Part shown: positions 3,831-19,502 of the stretch, piece after piece
Layout of the letters: each line of letters begins with the position of its first letter
Numbering within the stretch: the stretch's first letter is position 1
From: Cenarchaeum sp.
GTDB taxonomy: Archaea > Thermoproteota > Nitrososphaeria > Nitrososphaerales > Nitrosopumilaceae
Length of the DNA stretch: 64,000 bases
Assembly (NCBI GenBank): GCA_963692915.1
Contig: OY843584.1
Span: 416,001-480,000, forward strand
Direction: 5' to 3'
Position numbers and translations under genes: made by a program
Notes under the pieces: generated by a model
Told to the model about the DNA's origin: nothing
The model's database searches: none
What the model saw: the letters and a program-made list of their open reading frames with translations, nothing else

Positions 3831-6800
3831 ATGTGGGCTTGGAGGGTTGCCGTGGTGGCTCTATTGGGGGTTGTTGCGCTCGGTGCGATCTCGGGCGTGA
3901 TGGCCCAGGAGGCGCTGACGGCAAGCCCACTCACGACGCGCACGCTAGTCGACGGCGTGCCCACGCAGGTCCACGCAAAGGTCGGCGCGACAATATCCAT
4001 CTCCGTCGAGACGTCCTCGGCAGTCACGATTACCGCCTCGGACGTGTCGTTCTTTGGACGTGGCAGCCAGGCCGTTGCGCCAACGTCAGTGACCGGCAGC
4101 GGGACGTCATGGGAGGTGCGCCTCAACGTGGTCAACTCGCACGTCGAGGGCCCGCTGCGGTTCTGGATTACCGCCCATGATGCGGTGACGCCGACTAGCA
4201 CGATCACGCTCACCGAGGCCGACATTGCCGGACACCATGTCAGCATTGACCGGACGCGGCCAGAATTCACCATCACGCCGACGTCATCGACGACAACGCT
4301 AGTGACGCTCAACGAGCCGCTCTCGCCGCTAGTTGCCGCGTCACGCGAGCTTGACGTGTCACGTTGGTGCGTCAATGACTCACAGACCCCGCAGATCATG
4401 TGCTTATCCACTGCCGACTATAACAGGGACGTGGCGTCTGCGACCGTGCTGTCCTTGGGCCTGTCGCCGGTGATCCTGCTGACCCACGAGCCGGTGGTTC
4501 ACCTCTCGGACATGGTTGTGGTCTTTGACCACCACGACACCTCCACGCCGTTCCTGTTCACCGACGCTGCGCTGAACCTTCCGGCGATCCCCGCATCACA
4601 GTCGAGTGTTGAGGCGTCCATGCAGCGCATCTTTGGGTCCCCGCCGGCCACCTCGTCTGACCACGTGTTTCCGTTCACCGCGGAGTATGATGTGGGCAAC
4701 CGGCGGATCCTTGTGCGCATGGGAGACGCGATAGGGCTGACCGGCCAGCTGACGCTGGCTGACTGGCGTGTGGAGCACGGGGAACCTTCGCCTGATGTCG
4801 CCTCAAATGACCTCCAGACACAGACCATCTCGCAGTCTCCGCCATCCGAGACGGATCTTCACGTCAGGTACATCGGCCTTGAGTCCGCCGCGGTGGTGCC
4901 CGAGAACGCAAACCTGTGGGTCACGTACACGCCGAGCGACTCCATGCCGCTTCGCGTGGGCACCGCCGGAATGATCCTCACGGGCAGTGCCCAGTTTGCG
5001 CTAAACCCCGACACGCGGCCAACGACGCTGACGGTCAGCGCGCAGCGCGATTCGGGCTCCGGACCGGCCTCTTATGATGGCGACTTGAGGGCATCTGACA
5101 CCATCACAGTCACGATGCGCCTCAGGGAGGCGACACTGAGCACGTCAGTCCCGACGATATCGTTCTTTGGTGCGGCGGCCGTGGACATGACGGGCACTGC
5201 AGGCGGGCGGGACTGGACCGCCACGCTTGCCGTTCGTGACGATGACGCGTCCACCGATGGGGTCAACGAGGGCACGCCTGAGGGCAGCGTGGAGTTTGAC
5301 ATCACTGCGACGAACGTGGGGCGCACGGTGGTGCGCTACGACGAGTCGCACGTGACTGACGGCTCGTCGGTGAGCGTGGATCGCACGCCGCCACAGGTCC
5401 GCACGGCAAAGTTTGTGGACGCGCGCTCAGAGATACACGTTGTGCCCGATGAGCCCGTCTCGTACACGTCATTGACGGATCTCTTTACGGCCACTAGCGG
5501 CGGCTCGGAGGTGGAGCTCTCGGACGTGACGTTTGACGCGTTGCGTGGCGCATACGTGATCGAGATCACCGCGGCCGCGCAGGGCTCGACATATGTCCTC
5601 ACGCCTGCGGCGGGGGCGATCACGGACGGTGCGGGCAACGCGCTTGCCGGCTCGTTCAGCGTGGTCGACGAGTCCGCCGCGCCGACAGTCACATCAATGT
5701 CACTTGATGTCCTGCGCGCCGACGAGGCCGGCATGTATGTGCTCCGCAGCGGGGCGCACGCCGAGTACGCAATGGCCGATGACGTGATCCGCGTAACCCT
5801 CGGGCTCAACGAGATCACCAATCCCGTCACGGTGCCGACCGTGCGCTTTTTTGACCAGCAAACTCCAGTTGCCATGAACGGCTCACCGGGCGACATGGCC
5901 TGGACGGCAGACTTTCTCGTCACGTCCATGACGCGTGAGGGGTCTGTCGAGTTTGACATTGTCGCCCTGGACTATGTCGGCAATGCCGCAGACATTGACG
6001 AGACTGGCGTCACGGACATGTCAGACGCAATCGTCGACCTCACGGCGCCATTGGCGTCACCGTCCATGACGTTTAGCTACACTGCGACTCCGACGGGATT
6101 CACGCTGTTCTTTGCGGAGGATCTTGACGACACGACTGTCATGACCTCGGCCTTTGTCATAAAGAGTCCCGAGGGCGGCGTCGTCATGCAGAGTGCCGCG
6201 CCGACCTATGCGGCCTCGACGTCTAGCGCGCAGGCCGGCGTGAGCTTTACGACTGCGGCGCTCTCTGACGGGAACCACACAGTCGAGATCGCCATCTCGC
6301 TCACCGACAGGGCCGGAAACTCGTACGTGGCCGACGATGTGACCGTATACGTTGACACGACGGCCCCGACGGTGACTGGGATTGCCACCGAGTCCTCCAC
6401 GACGACAATAGTGACGCTTGATGAGGCAGTCACGGCCGACGGCAACGCAGCTCAGCGCTTGCGGCACTGGACGGTGACTGATGATGACCCTGATGGGTCG
6501 TCTGGCCCTATAGAGGCTCCCGTGAGGGCGATCTCAAACGTGGAGGTGATAGACACGGAAGGCATGGCCGCCGCGTCTGGCGAACGCATACGCATCACGC
6601 ATGCGTCCCTGGCCTCGACTGCCTCGACTCCGACTGTGGCGTATGCGCCAGTGTCTACTGACGTTGGTGGCATCGGTGCTGTCACCCTTGGCCTGGTGAC
6701 TGACGCCTCGCCACCGCTGGCCACCAGGCTTGCTGCCGTGTCGGCCACAGAGGCAGATGACCTTGCGTCCCCGACGGCGAATGATCCGAGCTTTACGAAC

Positions 6801-9800
6801 GCGCGCACGATAACGTTTACGCTGAGCGAGCCTGTGGTGCAGACGTTCCTTGAGCGAACGACCGTCTCGCCCCCCATTGGGACCCTGACTGTCGCAGTTG
6901 ACGGGCTCCGTGTCACCCTGAGCGGCACGACTAACGCCATTGACGGCACAACATACTCGATAGAGGTGCCGAGCGCCGTGACTGACTCAAAGTGTGTTGG
7001 CGTGACGGACACATGCGTGCCCAACATGTTCTCGCTCGATAGTGTAGAGCTGGCCTATGGTGACACATACGCCCCCACGGCACAGTCTGCGACCTTTTTG
7101 TCCTCCTCGCGCATAGATGTTGAGGTCAGTGAGACACTCGATGCAGACACGCTGTCTGGCATTACAGTAAGCCCGCCATTGGGAACTCTCACAGTGACCC
7201 AGTTTGACCTGACAGTCGTGATCGGCTTTACCGGCACGCCGAGTGTCGGCACGGAATATACGGTGACGATTCCGACGACGGTTACTGATGTGGCCTCTCC
7301 GGCCAACGCCTTTGCCCTCACCACGCTCGCGACGACGTACAGAGCTGACACGACTCAGCCCACAGTGGTCTCTGCCACCCAGACGTCATACGGCGTGATC
7401 GTCGTGAGGTTTAGTGAACCCATCCAGGGGACTACCAGAACGAGTGACTGGAGCATCTGGGATGACCGATATCCGGCTAATCCATTTCCTGCCATAGTGA
7501 ACGTCGCGCTAGGCGGCGGCTTTGCCACCTCTACGACTTCGCTCACAATACCTGGAACCGGTGCCCTTGTGCGAGAGATCACGCTGTCAGCCAGGGTCGA
7601 GTCCACAGAATCCAGGCCGTATACTCAGCATGTTGGGAGCGGACTTACGGATCTGTCGGGTAACGTCCTTCGAGACACTGACAGGAGCAATATCCATGGT
7701 GCCGTACGTTTCACGGACAAGGCGCCTCCTGAATCCCTGGGCATCGTGGTGGAGTCGACCAGACCACGCCAGGCAGATCTTGTTTCGGGCATCGACATTG
7801 GCACACTGCTCGTAAAGGCCGGAGACGAGGTGACATTTACTGTTGAGTTTGATGGCAGTTCGACCCCGTTTCGCGATCGTTATCTGCGCACACAACTTGA
7901 GGTAGACCCAACAATACAGTACGTTAGGGGCGGCACGACATACCCGCTGGCATTCCATAGTGATGTGGAGAACTGGTCGCACACCCTGACCATCACAGGG
8001 GACATGCCTGATGGCCTGCTCGTGCCGTTCCTGACGATCAAGGACAGAGTAGTCCAAAACGGACCGGGCAACATCGGAGAGTACCTGGGAGCATCCACCA
8101 ATCCCAATGCGTGTGACCGTATCGCGGACGCTATACCTGCGAATCGGGCGACAGGGTGCCTGCAGGGGGTGGGACTAGAGCAGGGCCTGCCACGGCTCTT
8201 CCCCACCGTGGACAACTCGCCGCCGGTGATCGAGTCAGCAGAGACGACGACGACTACGACGACGCTAGTCACGCTTGATGAGCCTGTCCTCACATCTACG
8301 GGCACGCCCGCCCAGATTGCTGACAACTGGGCGATGACTAGCGGCACAGATACCGTCAACGTCAGCTCGGCGGCCGTGGCTGGCTCTGAGGTGACGCTCA
8401 CACACGATACGCTTGACACCTATGCGACGCCGACGCTCACATACACGAGGGGGGCAACTGAGGATGCGGGACGCATCATTGACAGGGTGGATAACAGCCT
8501 TGCCCAGGCAGACTCGGTTCCGGTGGCAGACGGCACGGCGCCCGCGTTCGTCTCGGCAACCATTGGGGCATCACCGTCGCGCACAGTCACGGCGACGTTC
8601 AGCGAGGATATCGCCCGGTCCTCGGTGAGCGCCACGACGATAATGCTTGAGGACTCGGCCGGCACGGCCGTCGAGGGCACCCTGCTGTACCACGATCCAG
8701 ACAACGAGGACACCGTGGCGATAACGTTTCCGTCCAGCGCTGTGGCGCTAGACGGCATGTACACCCTGCGCATAACGACGGGGATAACGGACGCCTCGCC
8801 GCAGGCAAACCCGCTGCCAGCCGAGGCTACGGAAAGCATAGCCCTAAACACGGAGGCTCCGTACATGGTGTCGGCCACAACACGCCTTCCACCCTCATCA
8901 CTCCTTGCTCTCTCTGGATACAACACTCAAGCTGGACCTGTCAGCACCGTGTTACACTTGTATGATGGGGCACAGTCTAGGTCTGTGGTGCCCTCGCCGC
9001 TTAGCGCAATCACTACGGTGACACTCAGCGAGCCTGTGACTACGCCGGGTTCTGCCACTATGGAGAATGTGAGATCCCACTGGAAAGTTGCGGCGGGCTC
9101 GACGGACCTGACCGTGACGTCCGTTGCCGTGTCTGGCAGGACAGTCGCCATAACGCACTCTATACCGGCCAGCACGGACAGCACGTTCACGGTAACGCAC
9201 ACGGTCGGCGACAGTGCGGGGCTCGTCATGGACTCGGCGAACGCCAACATCGCAGACGATGAGAATGCCCAGTCATCTGATGGCATCATCCCACTGTGGA
9301 GCGCGCGTCTCACAGGCCCCACGACTGCGCTAGTGACGTTCAGCGAGCCGGTGATGCAGGTTCCTGGCACAACTGCCATTGACGCGTGGAGGGCATCTGG
9401 CCGCGGTGACCTTGCTGACCAGCGAATGGGAGAGGACAGGTACAGCCGCGCAAACGACGGCGATCGCCGCCTGGCAAGCGCCACGCTCTCAGATGACGGG
9501 AGGAGCATGACGCTGGAGATGAGCGCGGCAATACCCACAGACGACAGGGCGTACTCGGCCACAAACCTCCCCTGGATAAAGTACTATCCTGGCGCATTTG
9601 CGAGGCAGACGCCGCTGCCCGCCACAGCCATCGCCAACACAATCGTGGACTTGGCAGGCAATGCGCTAACTGACCGCGTGTACCAGACAGGCGACGGCAT
9701 TGCCCCCGTTCTCACAGTCGCCTCGTTTGACGGCACGACGATGAGCGTGACGTCATCCAGGCCGCTTGACTCGACGACGATCCAGGGCGGCAACTTTGTC

Positions 9801-12800
9801 CTGAGGGGGCCGGGCTCGCTGACAACCACACACACGCCGACGCTTGTGCCGGGCGGCACGACTAGCGCGTTCTCGCTGACCTTTTCGCCTGCCCTGACGC
9901 TGTCCGGCTCGTACACGATGGTTCTCGGGGACGTTTATGACACGGTCACCACGCAGCATCCGGGCGAGACCAGGGCAGGCAACCGCCTCGTCCTCAGCGA
10001 GCCGACAGTCATGTTCCTCCCGTCGGGCGCCACGAACCCAGTGCTCGCATCGGCCGAGACGCTCACAAAGACGACGACGCAAGTCACGTTTAATCAGCCC
10101 GTGGAGGGCATGACGTCGCGCAGCCAGTGGACCATCACGTCACAGGGCCTGACGATAAATGTCCTCGGCGTGGCCGCCGGCTCGGCGACACCCGTGGATA
10201 GCGCCGATCCAATAACGGTTGCCCGCAGTGGCGCGACGCTGACAATGACGCTGCTCCACGATGCCATCTCCTCGGGCCTGACGCCTGGGATTGACTATGA
10301 TCCCGCCGGCGATACCAGTATAGCCGATGCGAACAGGCTGCGCGACAACTCCAACAACGCCATATTGGGGACTGGCACCACTGGCCCCACGGCGACTGAC
10401 GGCATTCCGCCGCAGGTGTCTGATGCGACGTTCATTGCACGCAACGGGCTCCGGTTGACCTTTGAGGAGCCCCTTGCGCAGGCAAGCGTGACGGCGATGG
10501 GCACGACATTTACGATCACCGACCCGTCAGGGGATCCCGTGAGCCTTGCGAGTGATAATCCCGTGAGCTATTCCGCATCGTCACAGTCAGTCACGCTGAT
10601 CCTCGAAGACTTCACCACGGAGCATGGCGGCTATGGCATCACAATCGTCGGCGTAGCTGACACCGCGTCGCCTACCGCAAACTCGTGCACCGCCATGACG
10701 TGCACGGCAACGGCGGACCGCGAGGTTCAGCTTCCGGTCCTGGGCACCACTGGCTCGCTTGTCGCCAGCGTCCTGTCAGGCGACCCGCTGGCCGCAAAGT
10801 CCACAAACCCAAACATCGCCACGGGTGGCGACACGCTGCGTGTGGCACTCACGCTGGCCGGCATTGTGCCTGATCCCGCCGCGCCAGCCGTGATCGACTC
10901 GGCGCTCCTGAGGGATATTGACAGGCCGTCGATCAGCTTCTTTGGTGGCGAGGGGATGGCCATGACTGACGTCACACAGGCAGGCTCGCCGGCAAGGTCA
11001 TCCTGGTCTATAGACTATACCGTGCCGTCCACGCCGCAAAGGGATGCACAGGCCGAGTTTTCGATAACGGTCGGACATAACCTCGACACAGCCACGTTCA
11101 CGCGGGCCGAGCTGACGTCTGGCACGGCAGTCAGCGTTGACACAAAGCCCCCCGGCCTCTCGGCGTCTGCTGCTGACCCCCTGTACACGAGAACCGAGGC
11201 GGTGGGCGCGACTGCTGGCCTCGGCTCGGCACGCAACGCGCAAGTGGGCGACGTGATGCTCGTTGTGCTCACCACTGACGAGCCGCTCTCTGGCGTCATC
11301 CTCGGCGATGCGACATTCTCTAGCGGCCGTGCCGCAACAGATGTCTCGTCTGACCACACGTCGCGCGGAATCACCCCAGCGCTACCGGAGGACACGTACG
11401 TCTACTCGCGCACCGTGGCCTCTGATGAGCCCGAGGGTCCGGTAGAGTTCTCGATCACGGTTCGCGACGCAGTCGGCAACACGGACACCCTGGACGCCGA
11501 TGACCTGCCCACGGGGGACGACGCGACGGGCTATCGCCTGAGCGTCGACAGGACAGCGCCTACTGTGAGCAGCGCAATGTTCACCTCTCCTACAGTGCTG
11601 ACCATAACGTTCGGCGAGTCCGGGATTCAAACGCTGCCTGCGACACTCACGCTGACTAGGACATCTACGCCAGGCACGACGACTTCGACGCTGACTGCGA
11701 CGCTCTCCGGGGAGCCTGATGGCGCGTCTGTGACATACACCGTTCCGGCAATCCAGCCGTACGCCCACGAAAGCGCCGAGTACACGTTCACGCTGCCTGC
11801 GACGATCCTCGATGACGCGCTCAACGCGTACGTGCCGCCCGCAGACGACATCGTGGTCTCCGAGTCACCCGTCACGATCTCCTCGGCTGAGACATCGTCG
11901 ACTACCGTCACGGACGTCACGCTCTCGGCGCCGCCGGTCGCACTGGGCACCGATGCAACTCCTGCCACGCCAGCCACGCCTGCGCAGATCGCCTCGCACT
12001 GGTCAGTCTCTGAGGTCATCGACGGCACGACAGTCGACAGGGAGGTCACGGGCGCTGCGATAACGGACTCCACGATTCGCCTCACGCATGCGCCCCTTGC
12101 GTCATCATCCTCGACTCCCTCGGTGGCGTACACGGCTCCTGCGTCACGGGCGGTCGGACAGCTCGTTGATGCCACCTCGAGCACGCTCTCTGTCCAGACG
12201 TTTAGCGGAACCGCGGCTGATGGCGCGCCGCCCGTGATGACGGCACGCTTCACAACGCCTGCAATCATCACAGTCACGCTGGACTCGCCGTACGTGACCA
12301 CGCCGGCCGAGCGGGCTCCGGCGCTGTCAAACACAATGTCCCCGATGGACAACGCCGCGACGTTCACGCTGGCCCAGGCCCCGCCCACGACGCTCACGCT
12401 GAGCCTTGGCGGCACCGTGGATGACGGGACATACGAGTTCACAATCACGGTATATGACTCAAACGGCAACATGGGAGTACAGGCCTTTTCACTCGACAGG
12501 GACTCGACTAGCATATTCGCCTCGGCAAGAACCCTCTCGCACACAAGCGTCGAGGTCTCCTTTGCGCTCGGCACGGCGCTAGCGCAGGGCGTGACCTCCC
12601 TTGATCCCGCGCGCTGGACAGTCATCACGCCCGTGGAGGGCGCCCAGGGGGCCACAACGATCACAGTGGCCTCCGTGTCGGCCCTCGCGGACAACAAGGT
12701 GACGCTCACGCTGGCCTCGCCGGGCATTGTGGCCTCGGACGGCACGCCTGACACGGCGGCAACGCCGACCGTAAAGTACACGCGCGGCGTGGGTGCCGCC

Positions 12801-15800
12801 GTCGAGATCCTCGGCTCGACCTCTGAGGAGCTAATGTCAGACTCAAAGCGGGCAACTGATGCGGCCCCGCCGACTCCCCACTCGGCCGTGACGTCCTCGA
12901 CGACCAACGGCGAGAGGCTCGTCATGGCGTTCAGCGAGCCCCTGTACATTGGTTCCGTGGCCGCCCCCGGAATCCCAGATGCTGACATTACGTCCCAGCT
13001 CTCCATCCACGTCGACGGCGCCACGGAAGGCACGGCCCCGTCGTCCATATCGCGAAGCTCTGATGGCACAGAGCTCACGCTGGCCTATACGGGAGTATCG
13101 CTCAACCCCGTGGCCGCATCCACGTTTGTCCGATATGACGGCACGCTGCCTGTCGGCGAGCGCATTCTAGACGTCGTGCCCAACACGCTGTCTAATGCTG
13201 CCCTGGACACGCTCGTGACGGACATGATAGTGCCGTCGATATCCTCGGCCAGGACTGCGGGGGCCACGACGACAGAGGTCACGTACGACGAGCCGATCGC
13301 CCTGGTCGGCGACCCCGCCTCACTCTATGCGATAGAATTTCCGGCCGGAACCACGACGCCCCCCGGCTCTGTGGCCATAAAGGCCGGCGATCCCAGCGTG
13401 GCTGTCCTGACGCACTCGTCTGTCACGTATGGGGTGGACTCTACTGCGACTCTGGCCTACACGGCCGGCACGGCAACGCAGTCCGTGACTGATGCGGCAG
13501 CGGGCGCAAACAGGGCAGAGGCGGTCACGGCGGTGCGAATTGCCGACGGGATCGCCCCAAAGATAACGGAGGTGGAGACTGAGTCGCAGACAACGACGAT
13601 CGTGACGCTTGATGGCCCTGTAACGGCCGGCGGTGATGCCGCACAGCGCTCGCGGCACTGGACCGTGACTGACGTTGACCCTGACGGCACAGGGCCGGTG
13701 GCCGCGCCAGACAGGGCAGTCTCGGGAGTCGACACCATTGACGCGGCTGGCGCCATAGCCACATCGGGCATGCGCATTCGCCTCACGCATGCCGAGCTCT
13801 CAGACACGGCCTCGACGCCGACTGTCGCGTATGTCGCGCGCGTCGACAGCAATGCGGACGGCACGATCGACGCCTTAGACGAGCCAAGCAGGGTCATCGA
13901 CCCCGCCGTCGATGCGCTCAGCATGCCGGCGCCAAACATACTGGCCGACTATACGACGACTGCAACTGACAAGGCGCCGCCGGTTATAACGGCAAGGTTT
14001 GCGACTGCGACATCGATAACCCTGACGCTCAGCGAGCCCATAGAGCGCACGACGGCGCTCCTCACGCGCTCCAACTGGGACATTGACAGCGCAGGAACCG
14101 GTGACAATCCCCGCCTGCTCCAGACCTCCACGCAAACGGAGACGGCCGTGTCATACCCCGCCTCCACGCCATTATCCATGACGATTCGCCTTAACGATGC
14201 CGCATCTGACAATGTCCACACGCTTACCATCCCGGCCGGTATAGTCGACAGGGCAGATACGCCCAACGCCTATGTGGCATCGCGTGCGCTGACCGTCGAT
14301 CCGATCGCAGGAGTCGCGTTTACGGCAAGTGCGACAGGACAGTCAACGATCGAGATCACGTTCACCACGGACGTCGAGAGGATCGGCTCCGCTCCGCTGG
14401 CCACCTCGGCATGGATCGTCTACGAGACACCAACACAGGGCACACAGGCAGAGCGCATCCCGATCTCCTCAGTCTCAGCCCTTGCCGACAACAAGGTGAC
14501 ACTGACGCTCTCGCCCTCGCCTGGCAGGGATGCGCAGACGTCGACTGGAAAAACGCCATACGTCGAGTATGTGCGCGACACCTCTGAGTTTAGGGATGTG
14601 GCCACGCGTGTGCCCCTTGCGGCAGAGGCGAGCGCGGTTGCCACTGATGACACCGACCCGACGATAAAGTCGGCTAGAACGTCATCGACCACGCAGATCA
14701 CCGTCACGCTCAACGAGCCAGTCGGATTTGTGGGCACGGGAGCCAATGCGCCATCTACGGCAGGCCAGATCGCGCAGTGGAGTGCATGCGTCCCGCCCGA
14801 GGGTTCCTCGTCATGCAGTGTGGCCGAGACGCTCTCGAGCATCGGCATAGCCATCTCTGGCTCCACAGTGACGCTGAACTTTGCGCCGGCTGACGAATGG
14901 GAGACAGACGTCGTGCCGGTTGTGACATACCGCAACATCGACGAGCCAGAGGACTCTGAGACGCCCGTGGCTGACCTCTCGGAGCGCGCGCGCGCACGCC
15001 TAGTCGACGTCAACGGCAATGGCATGGACGCAGTGTCGTACCAGTCCGCTGACGGCGTCGCGCCGGTCATCGTGTCGGCATCGACGGCCTCGGTCAGATC
15101 CATCAACGTCGTGCTCTCCGAGGTGTCCGTGTTCGCCCCCGCGTCATCCACGTCGGCACAGCGTGGGCCTCACTGGACGGCCACTGTGGATGGCGATAGC
15201 AGTGTGGGCTCGACTGCGGCGATATCGACGGTATCGGGCACCTCGACTCTCACGTTCCGCGTCGCCTCTGATGACGCATGGACTGGAGACGACTCCCCGA
15301 CTGTCGCCTATGTGAACCCTGCCGGTGCCGGACGCGTGACTGACGTGCATGGCAACGCCATGCTGGTGGCCTCTGGGGTGATGACGACCAATGTGGCGGC
15401 TCCCGAGCTGCTCAGCGCAAGGACGGTGTCGCTTGGCCGCACCGAAGTGGTGGTCTCAAAACCCGCCCAGATCAACGCTGGCACGGCCGCACAGGTGATT
15501 GGGCACTGGTCACTTTTGGACATCGACGGGGATGACGCCGGCGATGCCCCTGATCCCGTGACGATCAGGGGTGTCCGCCTCGATGACAGCATATCCCACG
15601 AGCCGGGCTCGTCTGTCGTAGAGCTCTCCCTGTCCGGCTCGCTGCCAAATGGTGTCCACGAGATAACCGCACGCAGCACGATCGCCTCGACGGGAGGCGC
15701 GACGCCCTCGTCTGACCAGACGACGCGCATTACGTCCTATGTCCCGCCGATGGTCCTTGAGGACCTAACCTTGGGTGATGATCGCATATCGCTGCTGTTC

Positions 15801-18800
15801 AGCCACGATGTGGAAGAGTCCACCATCCTGGGCAGCCTAGTCCTGCCATCAACCATGACAGTGCGGGGAGACGACCCTGTGTCATTCCAAAGACTCAACA
15901 ACAAATTGGTCCATGTGGACGTGACGAGGACGCCGGACCTCGTGGAGAGCGTCACAATACGGGACACGATACGCTCAACTGAGGGACACCGGCCGCTCGG
16001 CGACCAGGTGATCAGCAAGTCGACCACCTCACAATCCCTCAGCGATGCTGGCGTGTCTCCTGACGGACGGTCAATATTGCTCGACTTTGACGCCGAAATC
16101 TCTGCAGCATCGGCAGTCGTGGCCGCCTTTGAGCTCCCAACAGGAGTCAGCTTTGCCGCATCTAGCCCCGTGGTGACCACGGCAGGCTCCACTCTCGTCA
16201 CGCTCAACCTGTCCTCACAGCTGCCCAGGGGCATTCACACAATCTCGACAAAGGAGACACCCGCACTGGTCAGTACGACTGGCTCCGTCCTGTATCAGGG
16301 CACGCACACAATTACGTGGGATCCGGCACCACACGTCCTTGAGCACGTCTCGACGTCGCCGGACGGCCGGACAATAACGCTCCACTTTAGCAGGTCAGTG
16401 GACACGAGCACGCTCACGCCGGCCAACATTGCGCTCTCGACGGGCACTGCGCTAACGCAGTCCCAGATATCGCACGCCGTCGGCCCCAGGGTGACGATCA
16501 CGCTTGATGCGCCGCTGGCCACAGGCACGCACTCTGTGACGGTGCGCACGGGCGTGACTGCGTCAGGGTACCCACTGCCCGGCGAGACGGTCAGGTCGTT
16601 TGTCCACATGCCGTCTGCGCCATCCATCACCTCGGCGTCGCTCTCAGATGACGGGCGAACAGTGACGCTGGTCTTTAGCCACGCGCTGGACTCGGCCACA
16701 GTCACGCCCGCGGCCCTGTCATACTCTGAGGCCCTTGAAGGCGTGGTCGGGGACAGAACGCGCCTGATCATAGATCACGACGATCTCTCCGGACCGGGGG
16801 CGGCACCAACACTGTCATACGACCCTGACACGTCGACTAGTGGGACCATTGCCCTCAATGGCGTCTCCACGTCGCTGGTGGAGGAGACGCCATCCCTGGC
16901 CGTGGCTGACGGCATCCCGCCGCGGCTCGTCGGCGACCCCGAGCTAGTGGGCTGGTCATTTGGCAAGATTTTTGGGCCTGAAAGCACCGAGACTCCCCCG
17001 CGAAACATGCAAGACGCCGTTAGGTTCACGTTTAGCGAACCGATGAACAGGGATGACCTGATCGTCACATTCGATGTTGGCGGAGCACAGGTTTCTGCTG
17101 CGCCGGGTCAGTTCGCTTTCTATCAAGGTTCTAGTGTGACAGCCCCTGGTAACACCTTTCTTAACACGCATAGAGGACAAATTATTTTCCCTTTGACATA
17201 CAAGACCGACGCGGGGATAGTTCGATTTGCCCCCTTGCCTGAATATCGGGATGAATCTACGTGGGGCCAGGTCATTCCTGGCTATAACAGCTTTGATCTT
17301 CCCCGAGCTGCGCTTGGTGCACACCTTGACACCACGAACATGATATACACGATCTATAATCAGGGCGGTGCGACCACAGAGGGTCTTGGTTTCGTTCGAT
17401 TTATAGATCTGGCAGATCACCCGACCGTTCAACTACGAGACGTGGCCGGAAATCCGTACATTCCCGACCAGTCCAGGAAACATGATGAATTTATCCTAGA
17501 GACAGACACTGTGGGTCCGAAGTTTCGTGCCAAAGTGGCCTCGCCGACACAGATCAATGTAGAGTATCTGGAACCCGTGGAGATCAAGCAGGGTCGGGAG
17601 CTGCGATCCGCTGATTGGAGGATAGATCTGACGCCAGACGACGATAGTGACAACGAAGACGGCAACCTCAATTGGATTGGGCCCACGGCAGTCACTCACG
17701 CGTTTGACGAGTTCCCCAACCCCGAATTCCTCTCCTATGGTGACCTTGGAACCAGGTCGAGACTCACGGTCATGCTCACAGTAGACCCGCCAACGGAGAC
17801 TGTGAATGCCATGTCGCCCCTTGACGCGACTCCCCTTGACGTGCACTATGTCGCAAGCTCGGCAGATGTCGCCGATGCGCGCTCTCATGACGCCGTTGTG
17901 CCATTCGCCTTCGAGTACCGTCCAGGGGTAACTGACAACACAGGCCATGACGCAATCGCGCCGGCTGCGGCATCACTGGTGACCACAGTCGAGCGACCGA
18001 CTGCCACGGAGGGGGAGTTTGCCGAACGAACAGGCGCGTTTGCGCATTACGCGATGGCTGGTGACAGGATCACGGTCAGCGCAGTGCTTGACTCACCGGC
18101 GCTTGCTGCAACCGCTGACGCGGGAGTGGACGTGGGCGTGCTCACGCCGTACCTGGAGCTGGGAACATACGCTGTGAACATGGAACAGGGCACCCCGCCG
18201 CAATACAGCGTCGTAATTCCCACGACAGTCACTGATGCTGATGGGATAGCGTTTGCTGCAGACACTAGCCACGCCGTGACGTACGTTGCCTCGCCGCCGA
18301 CACTCTCAAACCCGAGCTTTGGCGCCCCGTCGAGGATATTCATTGAGACAAGCGAGCCGCTAGATGACACGACGCTAACGCCCACTAGCGTCAGCGTGGA
18401 AGGGCTTGAGACGGTGCGGGTTGACCGCGAGATCGACCGCGTGGTGATAAACACGCGACATGACGCGATCCCAGGAAAATCGTACACGATCCGCATTGCC
18501 GACACGGTCACTGACACTGACGGGGTTGCCACGGCCGCAACGACGCTGTCGGTGCAATATCCCGTAAAGGCAACTGCGACTGCAAGGTTTGCCAATGACA
18601 ATCGTCTGGTTATAACGACCAGCGAGTGGATCGTCGAGAGCAATATATTGGACAGATACGTATCGCTCTCTGCAGTCGGGGGCACGTCGGAACCGCTGGA
18701 TCTCAAATCCGCTACATTCTTCTTCCCGCATCTCGGATTTAATATTGATGATGACGTGCCGACTGGCACGTACGAGCTCACATTCTCTGACTCGTTAGTG

Positions 18801-19502
18801 ACGAGCGCGGGCACGACGTTTGAGAGCCCGATCCTAGTTGAGCATGTGGCAGGCCTGCGGACGCCAGAGGGGGCGCCGACGGCATCCAACGTTAGGTTCT
18901 TTGGCCCGGAGCACATACAGTTCGAGATGGACCAGTATCCTGCCACATCGACGCTTGAGAACATCGAGGTTCCGACGCTTGGGGTAAAGCGCGTCTCGCG
19001 CGATGCACTGACGATCACGCTGGCCCTGGAGGGCCGCGCCGACAGGGTATCGTGGCAAGCGTCGTGGATCGTGCCGACTGCGGACTCCACGACGCTGACG
19101 CAGGGCCCAATTGACTTTACGATCACCGCCACGGATGCGGCCGGCAACGCAGGCGACATTGGGCAGTCAAGCGTGTCGACGGGAACCAACAATGCCATAG
19201 TCGACACGACGTTGCCGACATTTGAGGCAGCCATCGTGGCCTCAGACCGCACGAGCGTGACGTTCGTCGAGCCTGCGCGCGGGACGATCGTCGCGTCCGA
19301 GTGGTGCGTCGAGGGCATCGCCTCGGTGGGAGTGTCAGCTGACGGTGTAGAGTTTGCGCCGTCATACCCTGTCGTTGACGCGGCGACAGTCACGGAGGGC
19401 CAGACGTTCATCCTGCGCCACACCGCAGTGCCGCACGGAACCGAGCCGACAGTAGAGTACTCGCCAGGCGAGCCGTGCGCGCCAGATGCGCCCAGCGGAT
19501 AG
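3831..19502 (+). CDS. giant secreted/surface protein (5223 aa) of tandem Ig-like beta-sandwich repeats, putative adhesin
   Basis: N-terminal signal peptide (RVAVVALLGVVALGAISGVMA-Q); Thr/Ser/Asp/Val-rich; recurring ~90-120 aa modules (VTLxEP...HW...LTH...TPTVxY...DGxxP; VTDxxGN; EGxVEFxI...VDxTxP). Confidence 0.88.
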   Translation: MWAWRVAVVALLGVVALGAISGVMAQEALTASPLTTRTLVDGVPTQVHAKVGATISISVETSSAVTITASDVSFFGRGSQAVAPTSVTGSGTSWEVRLNVVNSHVEGPLRFWITAHDAVTPTSTITLTEADIAGHHVSIDRTRPEFTITPTSSTTTLVTLNEPLSPLVAASRELDVSRWCVNDSQTPQIMCLSTADYNRDVASATVLSLGLSPVILLTHEPVVHLSDMVVVFDHHDTSTPFLFTDAALNLPAIPASQSSVEASMQRIFGSPPATSSDHVFPFTAEYDVGNRRILVRMGDAIGLTGQLTLADWRVEHGEPSPDVASNDLQTQTISQSPPSETDLHVRYIGLESAAVVPENANLWVTYTPSDSMPLRVGTAGMILTGSAQFALNPDTRPTTLTVSAQRDSGSGPASYDGDLRASDTITVTMRLREATLSTSVPTISFFGAAAVDMTGTAGGRDWTATLAVRDDDASTDGVNEGTPEGSVEFDITATNVGRTVVRYDESHVTDGSSVSVDRTPPQVRTAKFVDARSEIHVVPDEPVSYTSLTDLFTATSGGSEVELSDVTFDALRGAYVIEITAAAQGSTYVLTPAAGAITDGAGNALAGSFSVVDESAAPTVTSMSLDVLRADEAGMYVLRSGAHAEYAMADDVIRVTLGLNEITNPVTVPTVRFFDQQTPVAMNGSPGDMAWTADFLVTSMTREGSVEFDIVALDYVGNAADIDETGVTDMSDAIVDLTAPLASPSMTFSYTATPTGFTLFFAEDLDDTTVMTSAFVIKSPEGGVVMQSAAPTYAASTSSAQAGVSFTTAALSDGNHTVEIAISLTDRAGNSYVADDVTVYVDTTAPTVTGIATESSTTTIVTLDEAVTADGNAAQRLRHWTVTDDDPDGSSGPIEAPVRAISNVEVIDTEGMAAASGERIRITHASLASTASTPTVAYAPVSTDVGGIGAVTLGLVTDASPPLATRLAAVSATEADDLASPTANDPSFTNARTITFTLSEPVVQTFLERTTVSPPIGTLTVAVDGLRVTLSGTTNAIDGTTYSIEVPSAVTDSKCVGVTDTCVPNMFSLDSVELAYGDTYAPTAQSATFLSSSRIDVEVSETLDADTLSGITVSPPLGTLTVTQFDLTVVIGFTGTPSVGTEYTVTIPTTVTDVASPANAFALTTLATTYRADTTQPTVVSATQTSYGVIVVRFSEPIQGTTRTSDWSIWDDRYPANPFPAIVNVALGGGFATSTTSLTIPGTGALVREITLSARVESTESRPYTQHVGSGLTDLSGNVLRDTDRSNIHGAVRFTDKAPPESLGIVVESTRPRQADLVSGIDIGTLLVKAGDEVTFTVEFDGSSTPFRDRYLRTQLEVDPTIQYVRGGTTYPLAFHSDVENWSHTLTITGDMPDGLLVPFLTIKDRVVQNGPGNIGEYLGASTNPNACDRIADAIPANRATGCLQGVGLEQGLPRLFPTVDNSPPVIESAETTTTTTTLVTLDEPVLTSTGTPAQIADNWAMTSGTDTVNVSSAAVAGSEVTLTHDTLDTYATPTLTYTRGATEDAGRIIDRVDNSLAQADSVPVADGTAPAFVSATIGASPSRTVTATFSEDIARSSVSATTIMLEDSAGTAVEGTLLYHDPDNEDTVAITFPSSAVALDGMYTLRITTGITDASPQANPLPAEATESIALNTEAPYMVSATTRLPPSSLLALSGYNTQAGPVSTVLHLYDGAQSRSVVPSPLSAITTVTLSEPVTTPGSATMENVRSHWKVAAGSTDLTVTSVAVSGRTVAITHSIPASTDSTFTVTHTVGDSAGLVMDSANANIADDENAQSSDGIIPLWSARLTGPTTALVTFSEPVMQVPGTTAIDAWRASGRGDLADQRMGEDRYSRANDGDRRLASATLSDDGRSMTLEMSAAIPTDDRAYSATNLPWIKYYPGAFARQTPLPATAIANTIVDLAGNALTDRVYQTGDGIAPVLTVASFDGTTMSVTSSRPLDSTTIQGGNFVLRGPGSLTTTHTPTLVPGGTTSAFSLTFSPALTLSGSYTMVLGDVYDTVTTQHPGETRAGNRLVLSEPTVMFLPSGATNPVLASAETLTKTTTQVTFNQPVEGMTSRSQWTITSQGLTINVLGVAAGSATPVDSADPITVARSGATLTMTLLHDAISSGLTPGIDYDPAGDTSIADANRLRDNSNNAILGTGTTGPTATDGIPPQVSDATFIARNGLRLTFEEPLAQASVTAMGTTFTITDPSGDPVSLASDNPVSYSASSQSVTLILEDFTTEHGGYGITIVGVADTASPTANSCTAMTCTATADREVQLPVLGTTGSLVASVLSGDPLAAKSTNPNIATGGDTLRVALTLAGIVPDPAAPAVIDSALLRDIDRPSISFFGGEGMAMTDVTQAGSPARSSWSIDYTVPSTPQRDAQAEFSITVGHNLDTATFTRAELTSGTAVSVDTKPPGLSASAADPLYTRTEAVGATAGLGSARNAQVGDVMLVVLTTDEPLSGVILGDATFSSGRAATDVSSDHTSRGITPALPEDTYVYSRTVASDEPEGPVEFSITVRDAVGNTDTLDADDLPTGDDATGYRLSVDRTAPTVSSAMFTSPTVLTITFGESGIQTLPATLTLTRTSTPGTTTSTLTATLSGEPDGASVTYTVPAIQPYAHESAEYTFTLPATILDDALNAYVPPADDIVVSESPVTISSAETSSTTVTDVTLSAPPVALGTDATPATPATPAQIASHWSVSEVIDGTTVDREVTGAAITDSTIRLTHAPLASSSSTPSVAYTAPASRAVGQLVDATSSTLSVQTFSGTAADGAPPVMTARFTTPAIITVTLDSPYVTTPAERAPALSNTMSPMDNAATFTLAQAPPTTLTLSLGGTVDDGTYEFTITVYDSNGNMGVQAFSLDRDSTSIFASARTLSHTSVEVSFALGTALAQGVTSLDPARWTVITPVEGAQGATTITVASVSALADNKVTLTLASPGIVASDGTPDTAATPTVKYTRGVGAAVEILGSTSEELMSDSKRATDAAPPTPHSAVTSSTTNGERLVMAFSEPLYIGSVAAPGIPDADITSQLSIHVDGATEGTAPSSISRSSDGTELTLAYTGVSLNPVAASTFVRYDGTLPVGERILDVVPNTLSNAALDTLVTDMIVPSISSARTAGATTTEVTYDEPIALVGDPASLYAIEFPAGTTTPPGSVAIKAGDPSVAVLTHSSVTYGVDSTATLAYTAGTATQSVTDAAAGANRAEAVTAVRIADGIAPKITEVETESQTTTIVTLDGPVTAGGDAAQRSRHWTVTDVDPDGTGPVAAPDRAVSGVDTIDAAGAIATSGMRIRLTHAELSDTASTPTVAYVARVDSNADGTIDALDEPSRVIDPAVDALSMPAPNILADYTTTATDKAPPVITARFATATSITLTLSEPIERTTALLTRSNWDIDSAGTGDNPRLLQTSTQTETAVSYPASTPLSMTIRLNDAASDNVHTLTIPAGIVDRADTPNAYVASRALTVDPIAGVAFTASATGQSTIEITFTTDVERIGSAPLATSAWIVYETPTQGTQAERIPISSVSALADNKVTLTLSPSPGRDAQTSTGKTPYVEYVRDTSEFRDVATRVPLAAEASAVATDDTDPTIKSARTSSTTQITVTLNEPVGFVGTGANAPSTAGQIAQWSACVPPEGSSSCSVAETLSSIGIAISGSTVTLNFAPADEWETDVVPVVTYRNIDEPEDSETPVADLSERARARLVDVNGNGMDAVSYQSADGVAPVIVSASTASVRSINVVLSEVSVFAPASSTSAQRGPHWTATVDGDSSVGSTAAISTVSGTSTLTFRVASDDAWTGDDSPTVAYVNPAGAGRVTDVHGNAMLVASGVMTTNVAAPELLSARTVSLGRTEVVVSKPAQINAGTAAQVIGHWSLLDIDGDDAGDAPDPVTIRGVRLDDSISHEPGSSVVELSLSGSLPNGVHEITARSTIASTGGATPSSDQTTRITSYVPPMVLEDLTLGDDRISLLFSHDVEESTILGSLVLPSTMTVRGDDPVSFQRLNNKLVHVDVTRTPDLVESVTIRDTIRSTEGHRPLGDQVISKSTTSQSLSDAGVSPDGRSILLDFDAEISAASAVVAAFELPTGVSFAASSPVVTTAGSTLVTLNLSSQLPRGIHTISTKETPALVSTTGSVLYQGTHTITWDPAPHVLEHVSTSPDGRTITLHFSRSVDTSTLTPANIALSTGTALTQSQISHAVGPRVTITLDAPLATGTHSVTVRTGVTASGYPLPGETVRSFVHMPSAPSITSASLSDDGRTVTLVFSHALDSATVTPAALSYSEALEGVVGDRTRLIIDHDDLSGPGAAPTLSYDPDTSTSGTIALNGVSTSLVEETPSLAVADGIPPRLVGDPELVGWSFGKIFGPESTETPPRNMQDAVRFTFSEPMNRDDLIVTFDVGGAQVSAAPGQFAFYQGSSVTAPGNTFLNTHRGQIIFPLTYKTDAGIVRFAPLPEYRDESTWGQVIPGYNSFDLPRAALGAHLDTTNMIYTIYNQGGATTEGLGFVRFIDLADHPTVQLRDVAGNPYIPDQSRKHDEFILETDTVGPKFRAKVASPTQINVEYLEPVEIKQGRELRSADWRIDLTPDDDSDNEDGNLNWIGPTAVTHAFDEFPNPEFLSYGDLGTRSRLTVMLTVDPPTETVNAMSPLDATPLDVHYVASSADVADARSHDAVVPFAFEYRPGVTDNTGHDAIAPAAASLVTTVERPTATEGEFAERTGAFAHYAMAGDRITVSAVLDSPALAATADAGVDVGVLTPYLELGTYAVNMEQGTPPQYSVVIPTTVTDADGIAFAADTSHAVTYVASPPTLSNPSFGAPSRIFIETSEPLDDTTLTPTSVSVEGLETVRVDREIDRVVINTRHDAIPGKSYTIRIADTVTDTDGVATAATTLSVQYPVKATATARFANDNRLVITTSEWIVESNILDRYVSLSAVGGTSEPLDLKSATFFFPHLGFNIDDDVPTGTYELTFSDSLVTSAGTTFESPILVEHVAGLRTPEGAPTASNVRFFGPEHIQFEMDQYPATSTLENIEVPTLGVKRVSRDALTITLALEGRADRVSWQASWIVPTADSTTLTQGPIDFTITATDAAGNAGDIGQSSVSTGTNNAIVDTTLPTFEAAIVASDRTSVTFVEPARGTIVASEWCVEGIASVGVSADGVEFAPSYPVVDAATVTEGQTFILRHTAVPHGTEPTVEYSPGEPCAPDAPSG

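Follow-up and report, generated by a model that had tools for sequence, protein, structure and literature searches.

Vibrio cholerae FrhA is said to be one of the RTX adhesins that carry a split immunoglobulin-like (Ig-like) domain, and in the Gram-positive pilin RrgB domain D3 is reportedly inserted into D2, giving one Ig-like domain within another. For AhLap, an RTX adhesin of Aeromonas hydrophila, the available excerpt of the published account describes a split Ig-like domain from which a ligand-binding domain with adjacent termini buds out (PMC12077191). Tandem domain swapping, in the available part of a 2019 review, gives a 'terminal domain' and a circularly permuted 'central domain'; it is regarded there as a misfolding of two identical neighbours, for which no experimental structure had been deposited at the time of that review (PMC6863430). 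The locus described here lies in a 64,000-nucleotide stretch of DNA from Cenarchaeum sp. (GenBank assembly GCA_963692915.1, contig OY843584.1, positions 416,001 to 480,000 of the forward strand), called the window throughout. A giant open reading frame (ORF) of 5223 amino acids (aa) at 3831..19502 (+) encodes Ig-like modules of three types defined in the course of this work: A, B (Big_5-like) and C. One of its type-A modules is interrupted by an array of other Ig-like units that begins with the C-terminal half of a unit and ends with an N-terminal half. This arrangement had been noticed in a first-pass annotation made from the sequence alone; the observation is confirmed and extended here, and its origin by insertion is well supported.

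The split type-A module and its permuted insert

The N-terminal half of the interrupted module (A_N) occupies 15414..15584 (aa 3862-3918) and the C-terminal half (A_C) 16752..16922 (aa 4308-4364), both on the + strand, as are all other features of the window given below. Between them lies an insert of 1167 nt, or 389 codons, at 15585-16751 (aa 3919-4307). It opens with the C-terminal half (strands C', E, F and G by sequence pattern) of a Big_5/SbsC-like unit, here called B' (15585..15755, aa 3919-3975), continues with three whole units -- unit 2 at 15756..16034 (aa 3976-4068), the most diverged, unit 3 at 16035..16340 (aa 4069-4170) and unit 4 at 16341..16625 (aa 4171-4265) -- and closes with the N-terminal half (strands A', A, B and C) of a B' unit (16626..16751, aa 4266-4307). 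One copy of the motif GACAG stands at the start of the insert (15585..15589), and is present in the G001 genome too; the other stands directly after the insert (16752..16756). By these strand assignments the insert begins and ends at one and the same place in the unit, the C-C' turn, and is set in frame into the C-E hairpin of the type-A module. There are no stops or frameshifts in the split-module region; longer DNA repeats are absent, as are inverted repeats at the insert ends. The insert has no transposase, endonuclease or splicing domain and is one open frame of Ig units. Coordinates, length and both GACAG copies agree with those of the first-pass annotation.

Searched with half-domain hidden Markov models made from 31 whole A modules, the giant protein showed 28 half-matches: 13 adjacent N-C pairs, an orphan N-half at aa 3862-3918 and an orphan C-half at aa 4314-4364. 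The two orphans, the sole A_N and the sole A_C without a neighbouring partner, are the halves on either side of the insert, and the earlier reading of them as one split module stands. When all frames of at least 250 aa in the same genome were examined, 73 adjacent half pairs were found, made up of 57 A_N-A_C, 14 B_N-B_C, one A_N-B_C and one B_N-A_C, and the two mixed pairs (2/73) are exactly the two junctions of the insert. Both A_N and A_C have the same two uninterrupted A domains as their best paralogue matches, one in a 3494-aa frame (aa 1952-2066; E 0.047 for A_N and 3.3e-7 for A_C) and one in a 319-aa frame (aa 17-127; E 0.011 and 9e-6).

The permutation proposed for the insert is borne out both by the type-B profile and by half-profile scores. 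The first piece matches positions 20-74 of the type-B profile and the last piece positions 1-25, so that the two cover complementary parts of one domain in swapped order, with three whole units between them. The first 57 aa of the insert score 38 bits against C-half profiles of a related array family (discussed below), and the last 45 aa score 45.1 bits against the terminal N-half profile of that paralogue family, the next best score being 37.0. The insert units are 24-30% identical to one another and appear to be old copies. None of them reaches the gathering score of PF13205 in Pfam. Seeded on unit 4, a profile finds aa 1585-1665, the stretch of the same protein that does match PF13205.

Over the whole 5223-aa protein Pfam recognises one Big_5 domain (aa 1569-1663, E 4.7e-23) along with a sub-threshold Big_3_2, and on aa 2501-5223, the half that holds the insert, it finds no family at E <= 0.01. 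Because Pfam recognises only the one Big_5 domain, the modules were defined from the protein itself by iterated profile searches, which gave 20 matches for type A, 11 for type B, including the Pfam-positive unit, and a third type, C. Sequence searches of the PDB with one A and one C module gave no match at E <= 1. A domain at aa 3388-3487 (window 13992-14291) is of type B and is spanned whole by the type-B profile (65.7 bits), and its N-terminal half carries the Trp motif typical of A modules; a contaminated type-A profile matched there too. To judge by this domain, module types A and B grade into one another in sequence.

Modules of both types are also found outside the window, in a single open frame of 25,697 aa (G000:C1:1045961-1123051, -) with 72 type-A and 23 type-B profile matches; its counterpart in G001 has 24,633 aa. 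The A or B halves that seemed to lack a partner in the 25,697-aa frame were, on inspection, misses of sensitivity and not more nested cases.

Empty-site homologues and the origin of the insert

A search for shorter proteins with aa 4308-4720, in which 7999 candidates were scored, found one, P0018, a protein of 2802 aa that is cut at its N-terminus. It is colinear with aa 3602-4720 of the giant on both flanks of the insert, with 45.5% identity over 631 aligned residues. At its aa 1818-1934 lies one uninterrupted A domain covering profile positions 1-111 of 111 (59.9 bits): A_N aligns with the first part of this domain, 30 of the 57 residues of A_C (aa 4308-4364) are identical to it, and the 410 residues of the giant at aa 3896-4305 are matched by 24 residues, making P0018 shorter there by about 386-389. 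A second protein, P0010, is a 212-aa fragment on a 765-bp contig and in its best-matching stretch shares 53% identity with the query; the type-A profile runs through the site unbroken (positions 34-111, 36.5 bits). Taken as A, the first 45 residues of the fragment score 6.6 bits, compared with 1.6 and 0.0 when taken as a B N-half, and in a shuffle test p was 0.03 for the A_N end and 0.26 for the B_N end. No relatives were found when genome contigs were scanned with P0010 and metagenome contigs with one alignment.

On these alignments P0018 represents the empty site, and P0010 agrees with it; a homologue lacking the insert, which the first-pass annotation had suggested looking for, does exist, with a complete A domain at the colinear position. 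The arrangement is fixed in the lineage of the window and absent from P0018, a more distant orthologue. As all paralogous A domains are uninterrupted too, insertion in the window lineage accounts for the data with much greater economy than two precise deletions would. Sequence comparison in this way lends good support to insertion of a phase-matched ('permuted') array segment, and the origin by insertion put forward earlier is upheld.

The DNA arrangement itself was compared at the junctions in contigs of four runs from four studies, one of which (X1) may be the window's own source. The left junction is bridged by contigs in three runs (X1, X4 and X6), with X7 lacking cover there, and the right junction in all four; no joints or loose ends occur at the region in any of the contigs. 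In the G001 genome the order is unchanged and the protein 97% identical, and the same junction peptides are present in P0002 and P0016. Misassembly, a doubt raised in the first-pass annotation, is dismissed because contigs from four studies bridge the junctions, and the chance of an assembly artefact or chimeric contig is now negligible. Neither the empty-site joint nor the circle joint, for which that annotation had proposed a search, was seen in the contigs of the four runs, contigs being a form of data that drops rare variants. Three near-identical proteins, P0001, P0002 and P0016, all retain the arrangement. Between aa 3862-4364 and G001 there are 19 synonymous and 15 non-synonymous differences; the resulting ratio of non-synonymous to synonymous change (pN/pS) of 0.30 fits a protein that is being kept, the 34 differences being too few for more. 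Over window positions 13890-18500, G000 and G001 (locus L002) differ at 69 of 4611 nt, though listed as representatives of separate species in one genus.

When the 5-nt repeat is counted once, the host halves fit an uninterrupted paralogue gap-free, and the end halves of the insert fit a whole unit within about 1 residue, in both cases as judged by eye; host and unit were therefore each cut at a single point. One illegitimate recombination would automatically yield the matching phases together with a 5-nt direct repeat. It could have taken place by a single crossover, at the microhomology, between the host and a circle that had looped out of an array of repeats, or by two template switches at the same microhomology, GACAG. 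A third route would be the copying of a ready-made ring cassette from a paralogue of the 2268-aa family described below, whose cassette has the same phase. Joint identity of 5 nt or more is found for 1.2% of random in-frame point pairs in the ORF, and for 3.5% with 2-codon slack, in accord with the earlier view that the match is weak on its own. Of the circular-cassette integration that was first proposed, the insertion stands, and the circular intermediate is only one possible route: circle integration and two template switches give an identical product, and p for the 5-nt match is only ~0.01-0.04. Circle integration or two template switches at GACAG are consistent with the sequence but unproven.

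Recurrence of the design and the predicted fold

Closer to the C-terminus of the giant a second domain, of type C, is split in a similar manner. Its N-part lies at 18027..18182 (aa 4733-4784; profile positions 1-42; 13.5 bits, 3.7e-6) and its C-part at 19029..19217 (aa 5067-5129; profile positions 45-102; 30.4 bits, 2e-11), as matched by a profile built from whole type-C domains only. The 282-aa insert between them (18183..19028, aa 4785-5066) consists of a B-like F-G piece, two whole B-like units and a B-like A'-to-E piece, the end pieces having been read by eye. The same split domain with its insert is also present in P0018, and this second cassette is therefore older than the insert in the type-A module.

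The third case is a family of paralogues of about 2200 aa, such as the 2268-aa protein at G000:C1:1445474-1452277 (+) and those at loci L005, L007, L008 and L013. The family is found in four genomes of the genus and in the metagenome proteins P0003-P0008; eight sequences were aligned (G000-G003 plus P0003, P0004, P0005 and P0008), and P0006 and P0007 were also read. In order, these proteins have an HExxH-type (HEYGHH) protease-like region, an interrupted type-C domain, a permuted array and a Big_5 domain. The type-C domain stops at profile position 76-87 of 102 in all four proteins scanned. The array that follows is a six-unit permuted one, with a C-half, five whole units and an N-half; after it comes a 17-residue tail that ends at type-C profile position 102, a weak match (independent E-values 0.0066, 0.088 and 0.44). 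Each array junction is present in seven of the eight aligned sequences, and the unit is cut at the same place as in the giant's insert, within about 2 residues. An uninterrupted counterpart of the family is ORF2835, a paralogue in the window's own genome (2835 aa, G000:C1:943840-952344, -): it shares the protease region with the 2268-aa family at 36% identity over 428 aa, and its type-C domain is complete (positions 1-102, 68.9 bits) and followed directly by the next Big_5 domain. In the 2268-aa family the ends of the array would have to meet, as colinear completion would leave pieces of ~145 and ~60 aa. As read from these sequences, the nested permuted design recurs twice beyond the type-A insert, in the second split domain and in the protease-bearing paralogues.

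The fold that we favour for the type-A insert, with a probability of about 0.5, is a closed ring of Ig domains budding from the split domain. The two host halves would reunite as one A domain; their reunion would bring the ends of the insert together, so that the C-half and N-half pieces re-form one B' domain, and the four units would close into a ring that buds sideways from the fibre. Such a ring would be a portable cassette, because its ends meet. A broader proposal, to which we lean somewhat less, is that giant archaeal surface proteins encode closed Ig-domain rings of 3, 4 or 6 units, each with a circularly permuted domain as its clasp, and that these cassettes have been moved by illegitimate recombination at least three times in the lineage.

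AlphaFold2 was run on two regions. For the paralogue region (8-row alignment) the mean predicted local distance difference test score (pLDDT) was 74.2 and the predicted template modelling score 0.39, and the end halves of the array had pLDDT 73-84, like whole units, a hint in favour of the ring, the output being pLDDT and secondary structure only. For the region of the type-A insert (10-row alignment without A-type rows) the mean pLDDT was 61.5, with 72-86 in the internal units. Fold searches covered internal units only. Model residues 313-408 (unit 4) match the S-layer protein EA1 (8opr_A; Z 8.9, root-mean-square deviation (rmsd) 2.2, 77 aligned), the model of the insert region matches 8q00_A (Z 10.7, rmsd 2.3, 89 aligned), and a unit of the paralogue array matches SbsC (4uj6; Z 13.3, rmsd 2.2, 93 aligned). 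The modelled array units thus resemble S-layer Ig domains.

The same insertion could instead be read colinearly, an outcome that the first-pass annotation had named as refuting its own reading: one chimeric Ig-like domain would be formed by A_N joined to the B' C-half and a second by the B' N-half joined to A_C, five beads on a string with no nesting. This is possible because A and B modules are, by their profiles, remote homologues with identical strand order: the two profiles align colinearly over 96 columns at about 10% identity (hhalign probability 88.7%, E 2.5e-6; E 0.0013 and 0.021 with smaller sets). The type-B profile crosses the left junction, reaching 9 residues into A_N (aa 3910-3961 against positions 20-74), and the type-A profile crosses the right one with aa 4270-4364. 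Neither chimera would lack a strand or depart from normal size (~117 and ~107 aa), and A C-halves are readily placed by MAFFT on the B N-half; its alignments of rows of half-domains to hybrid chains were misaligned and were left out for A_N. These points weigh against the ring and its proposed origin, as do several others. In the AlphaFold2 run on the type-A insert region both A halves are unmodelled (pLDDT 23-43), which makes that run uninformative on topology, and the insert end halves (pLDDT 50-73) fall below the internal units; ring closure would rest on the complementary end halves, AlphaFold2 having given no coordinates or contacts. At the DNA level there are the modest p of the GACAG match, microhomology no better than chance at the other two cassettes, and no donor array found closer than 38% identity. 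A specific kinship of the insert's end pieces to those of the paralogue cassettes was considered and rejected, with the C-halves tied at 38 bits and the N-half at 45 against 37. A complex prediction pairing aa 3859-3975 with aa 4266-4372 scored 0.00 in both runs, with the partner fold uncertain and no controls, and is evidence neither way.

Colinear folding is nonetheless unlikely in our view, the empty-site orthologue and the paralogue family having reduced it to a rival reading. Mixed pairs occur in none of the other 71 adjacent half pairs of the genome; a newly formed chimera of families that are only ~10% identical would need to fold immediately, as part of a protein under selection; and the equivalent reading of the paralogue family gives the ~145- and ~60-aa pieces mentioned above. 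AlphaFold2 built no chimeric domain, with A_N at pLDDT 25-43, a weak point because the alignment had no A-type rows. The low confidence in all four halves of that region would also suit a tolerated scar, in which the insertion destroyed the A module and left four half-pieces as linkers, unfolded or loosely packed, within a protein consisting mostly of spacer, and giant repeat proteins do tolerate variation in length. Such a scar is improbable with the frame intact and the arrangement kept in P0001, P0002 and P0016, these being near-identical and their pN/pS of 0.30 coming from few differences; analogous designs have moreover been kept over much larger distances, in P0018 and in the four genomes and metagenome proteins of the paralogue family. 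The halves might, finally, complement one another between molecules, the B' C-half of one chain pairing with the B' N-half of another, or A halves doing so, and build a surface polymer or lattice. The topology permits this, the matches to SbsC and EA1 recall S-layer domains, and donor-strand complementation in archaeal surface filaments has reportedly been described in a bioRxiv preprint. We hold it to be highly improbable, given that no result of the analysis speaks for pairing between chains, that partners in the same chain are at far higher local concentration, and that neither ring size (3, 4 and 6 units) nor host site is shared among the three cassettes.

Comparison with described systems

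If the ring closes, the tandem-domain-swap topology otherwise described as misfolding would have a natural counterpart encoded in a gene, and side branches on protein fibres a new mode of construction. The locus is also a rare dated evolutionary case, in that the filled site (the window), the empty site (P0018 and P0010) and a candidate donor family are all in hand, and this makes domain shuffling by phase-preserving illegitimate recombination testable; it should be of interest to protein-evolution and structural biologists alike. Neither domain insertion nor circular permutation is new in itself. A multi-domain array inserted so that its ends are the two halves of one domain was absent from the titles and abstract openings searched, a search with supplements and subscription journals outside it.

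The insert units can be placed with Big_5/SbsA_Ig (PF13205) and with SbsC, SbsB, EA1 and Sap, being linked by profile to the PF13205-positive unit and matching S-layer Ig domains in their models; they differ in lying in a half of the protein on which Pfam is silent (E <= 0.01), and membership of the family implies neither nesting nor permutation. As is said of RrgB, one Ig-like domain is nested in another here, whereas the nested element is a permuted array and not a single whole domain. The comparison with tandem domain swapping, as far as the available part of the review describes it, is close in one respect: one domain consists of an N-part and a distant C-part, and a second of a C-part followed by an N-part, which in the insert is seen in the complementary segments of the type-B profile. 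It differs in that the order in the giant is encoded by the gene, two domain types are involved, and the permutant has three whole domains as its 'linker'.

The host of the split domain is predicted to be a secreted giant archaeal surface protein: the N-terminus of the 5223-aa ORF resembles a signal peptide, as judged by eye, and the genes around it are archaeal housekeeping genes, namely class I lysyl-tRNA synthetase, geranylgeranyl reductase, an ELP3-type radical S-adenosylmethionine protein and FEN1/XPG. With such neighbours, and with no RTX repeats found by Pfam on the protein, it falls outside the RTX adhesins. Their split Ig-like domain appears all the same, from the available excerpt, to be the nearest described design. 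There, as in the giant, an Ig-like sandwich of a giant fibre is interrupted after some of its strands, another folded element follows, and the sandwich is then completed; in the giant the two halves are complementary, match the same whole paralogous domains, and correspond to a whole domain in P0018. The insert of the RTX adhesins is, in the same excerpt, just one ligand-binding domain, and its two ends lie next to each other by nature. That of the giant is instead an array of Big_5/SbsC-like Ig units of the extender type used elsewhere in the fibre, and its ends, whose adjacency we infer from the complementary end halves, would meet only if the cut unit re-forms. By this analogy the ring of the giant would elaborate the split-domain plan of the RTX adhesins, with a circularly permuted unit serving as its clasp.

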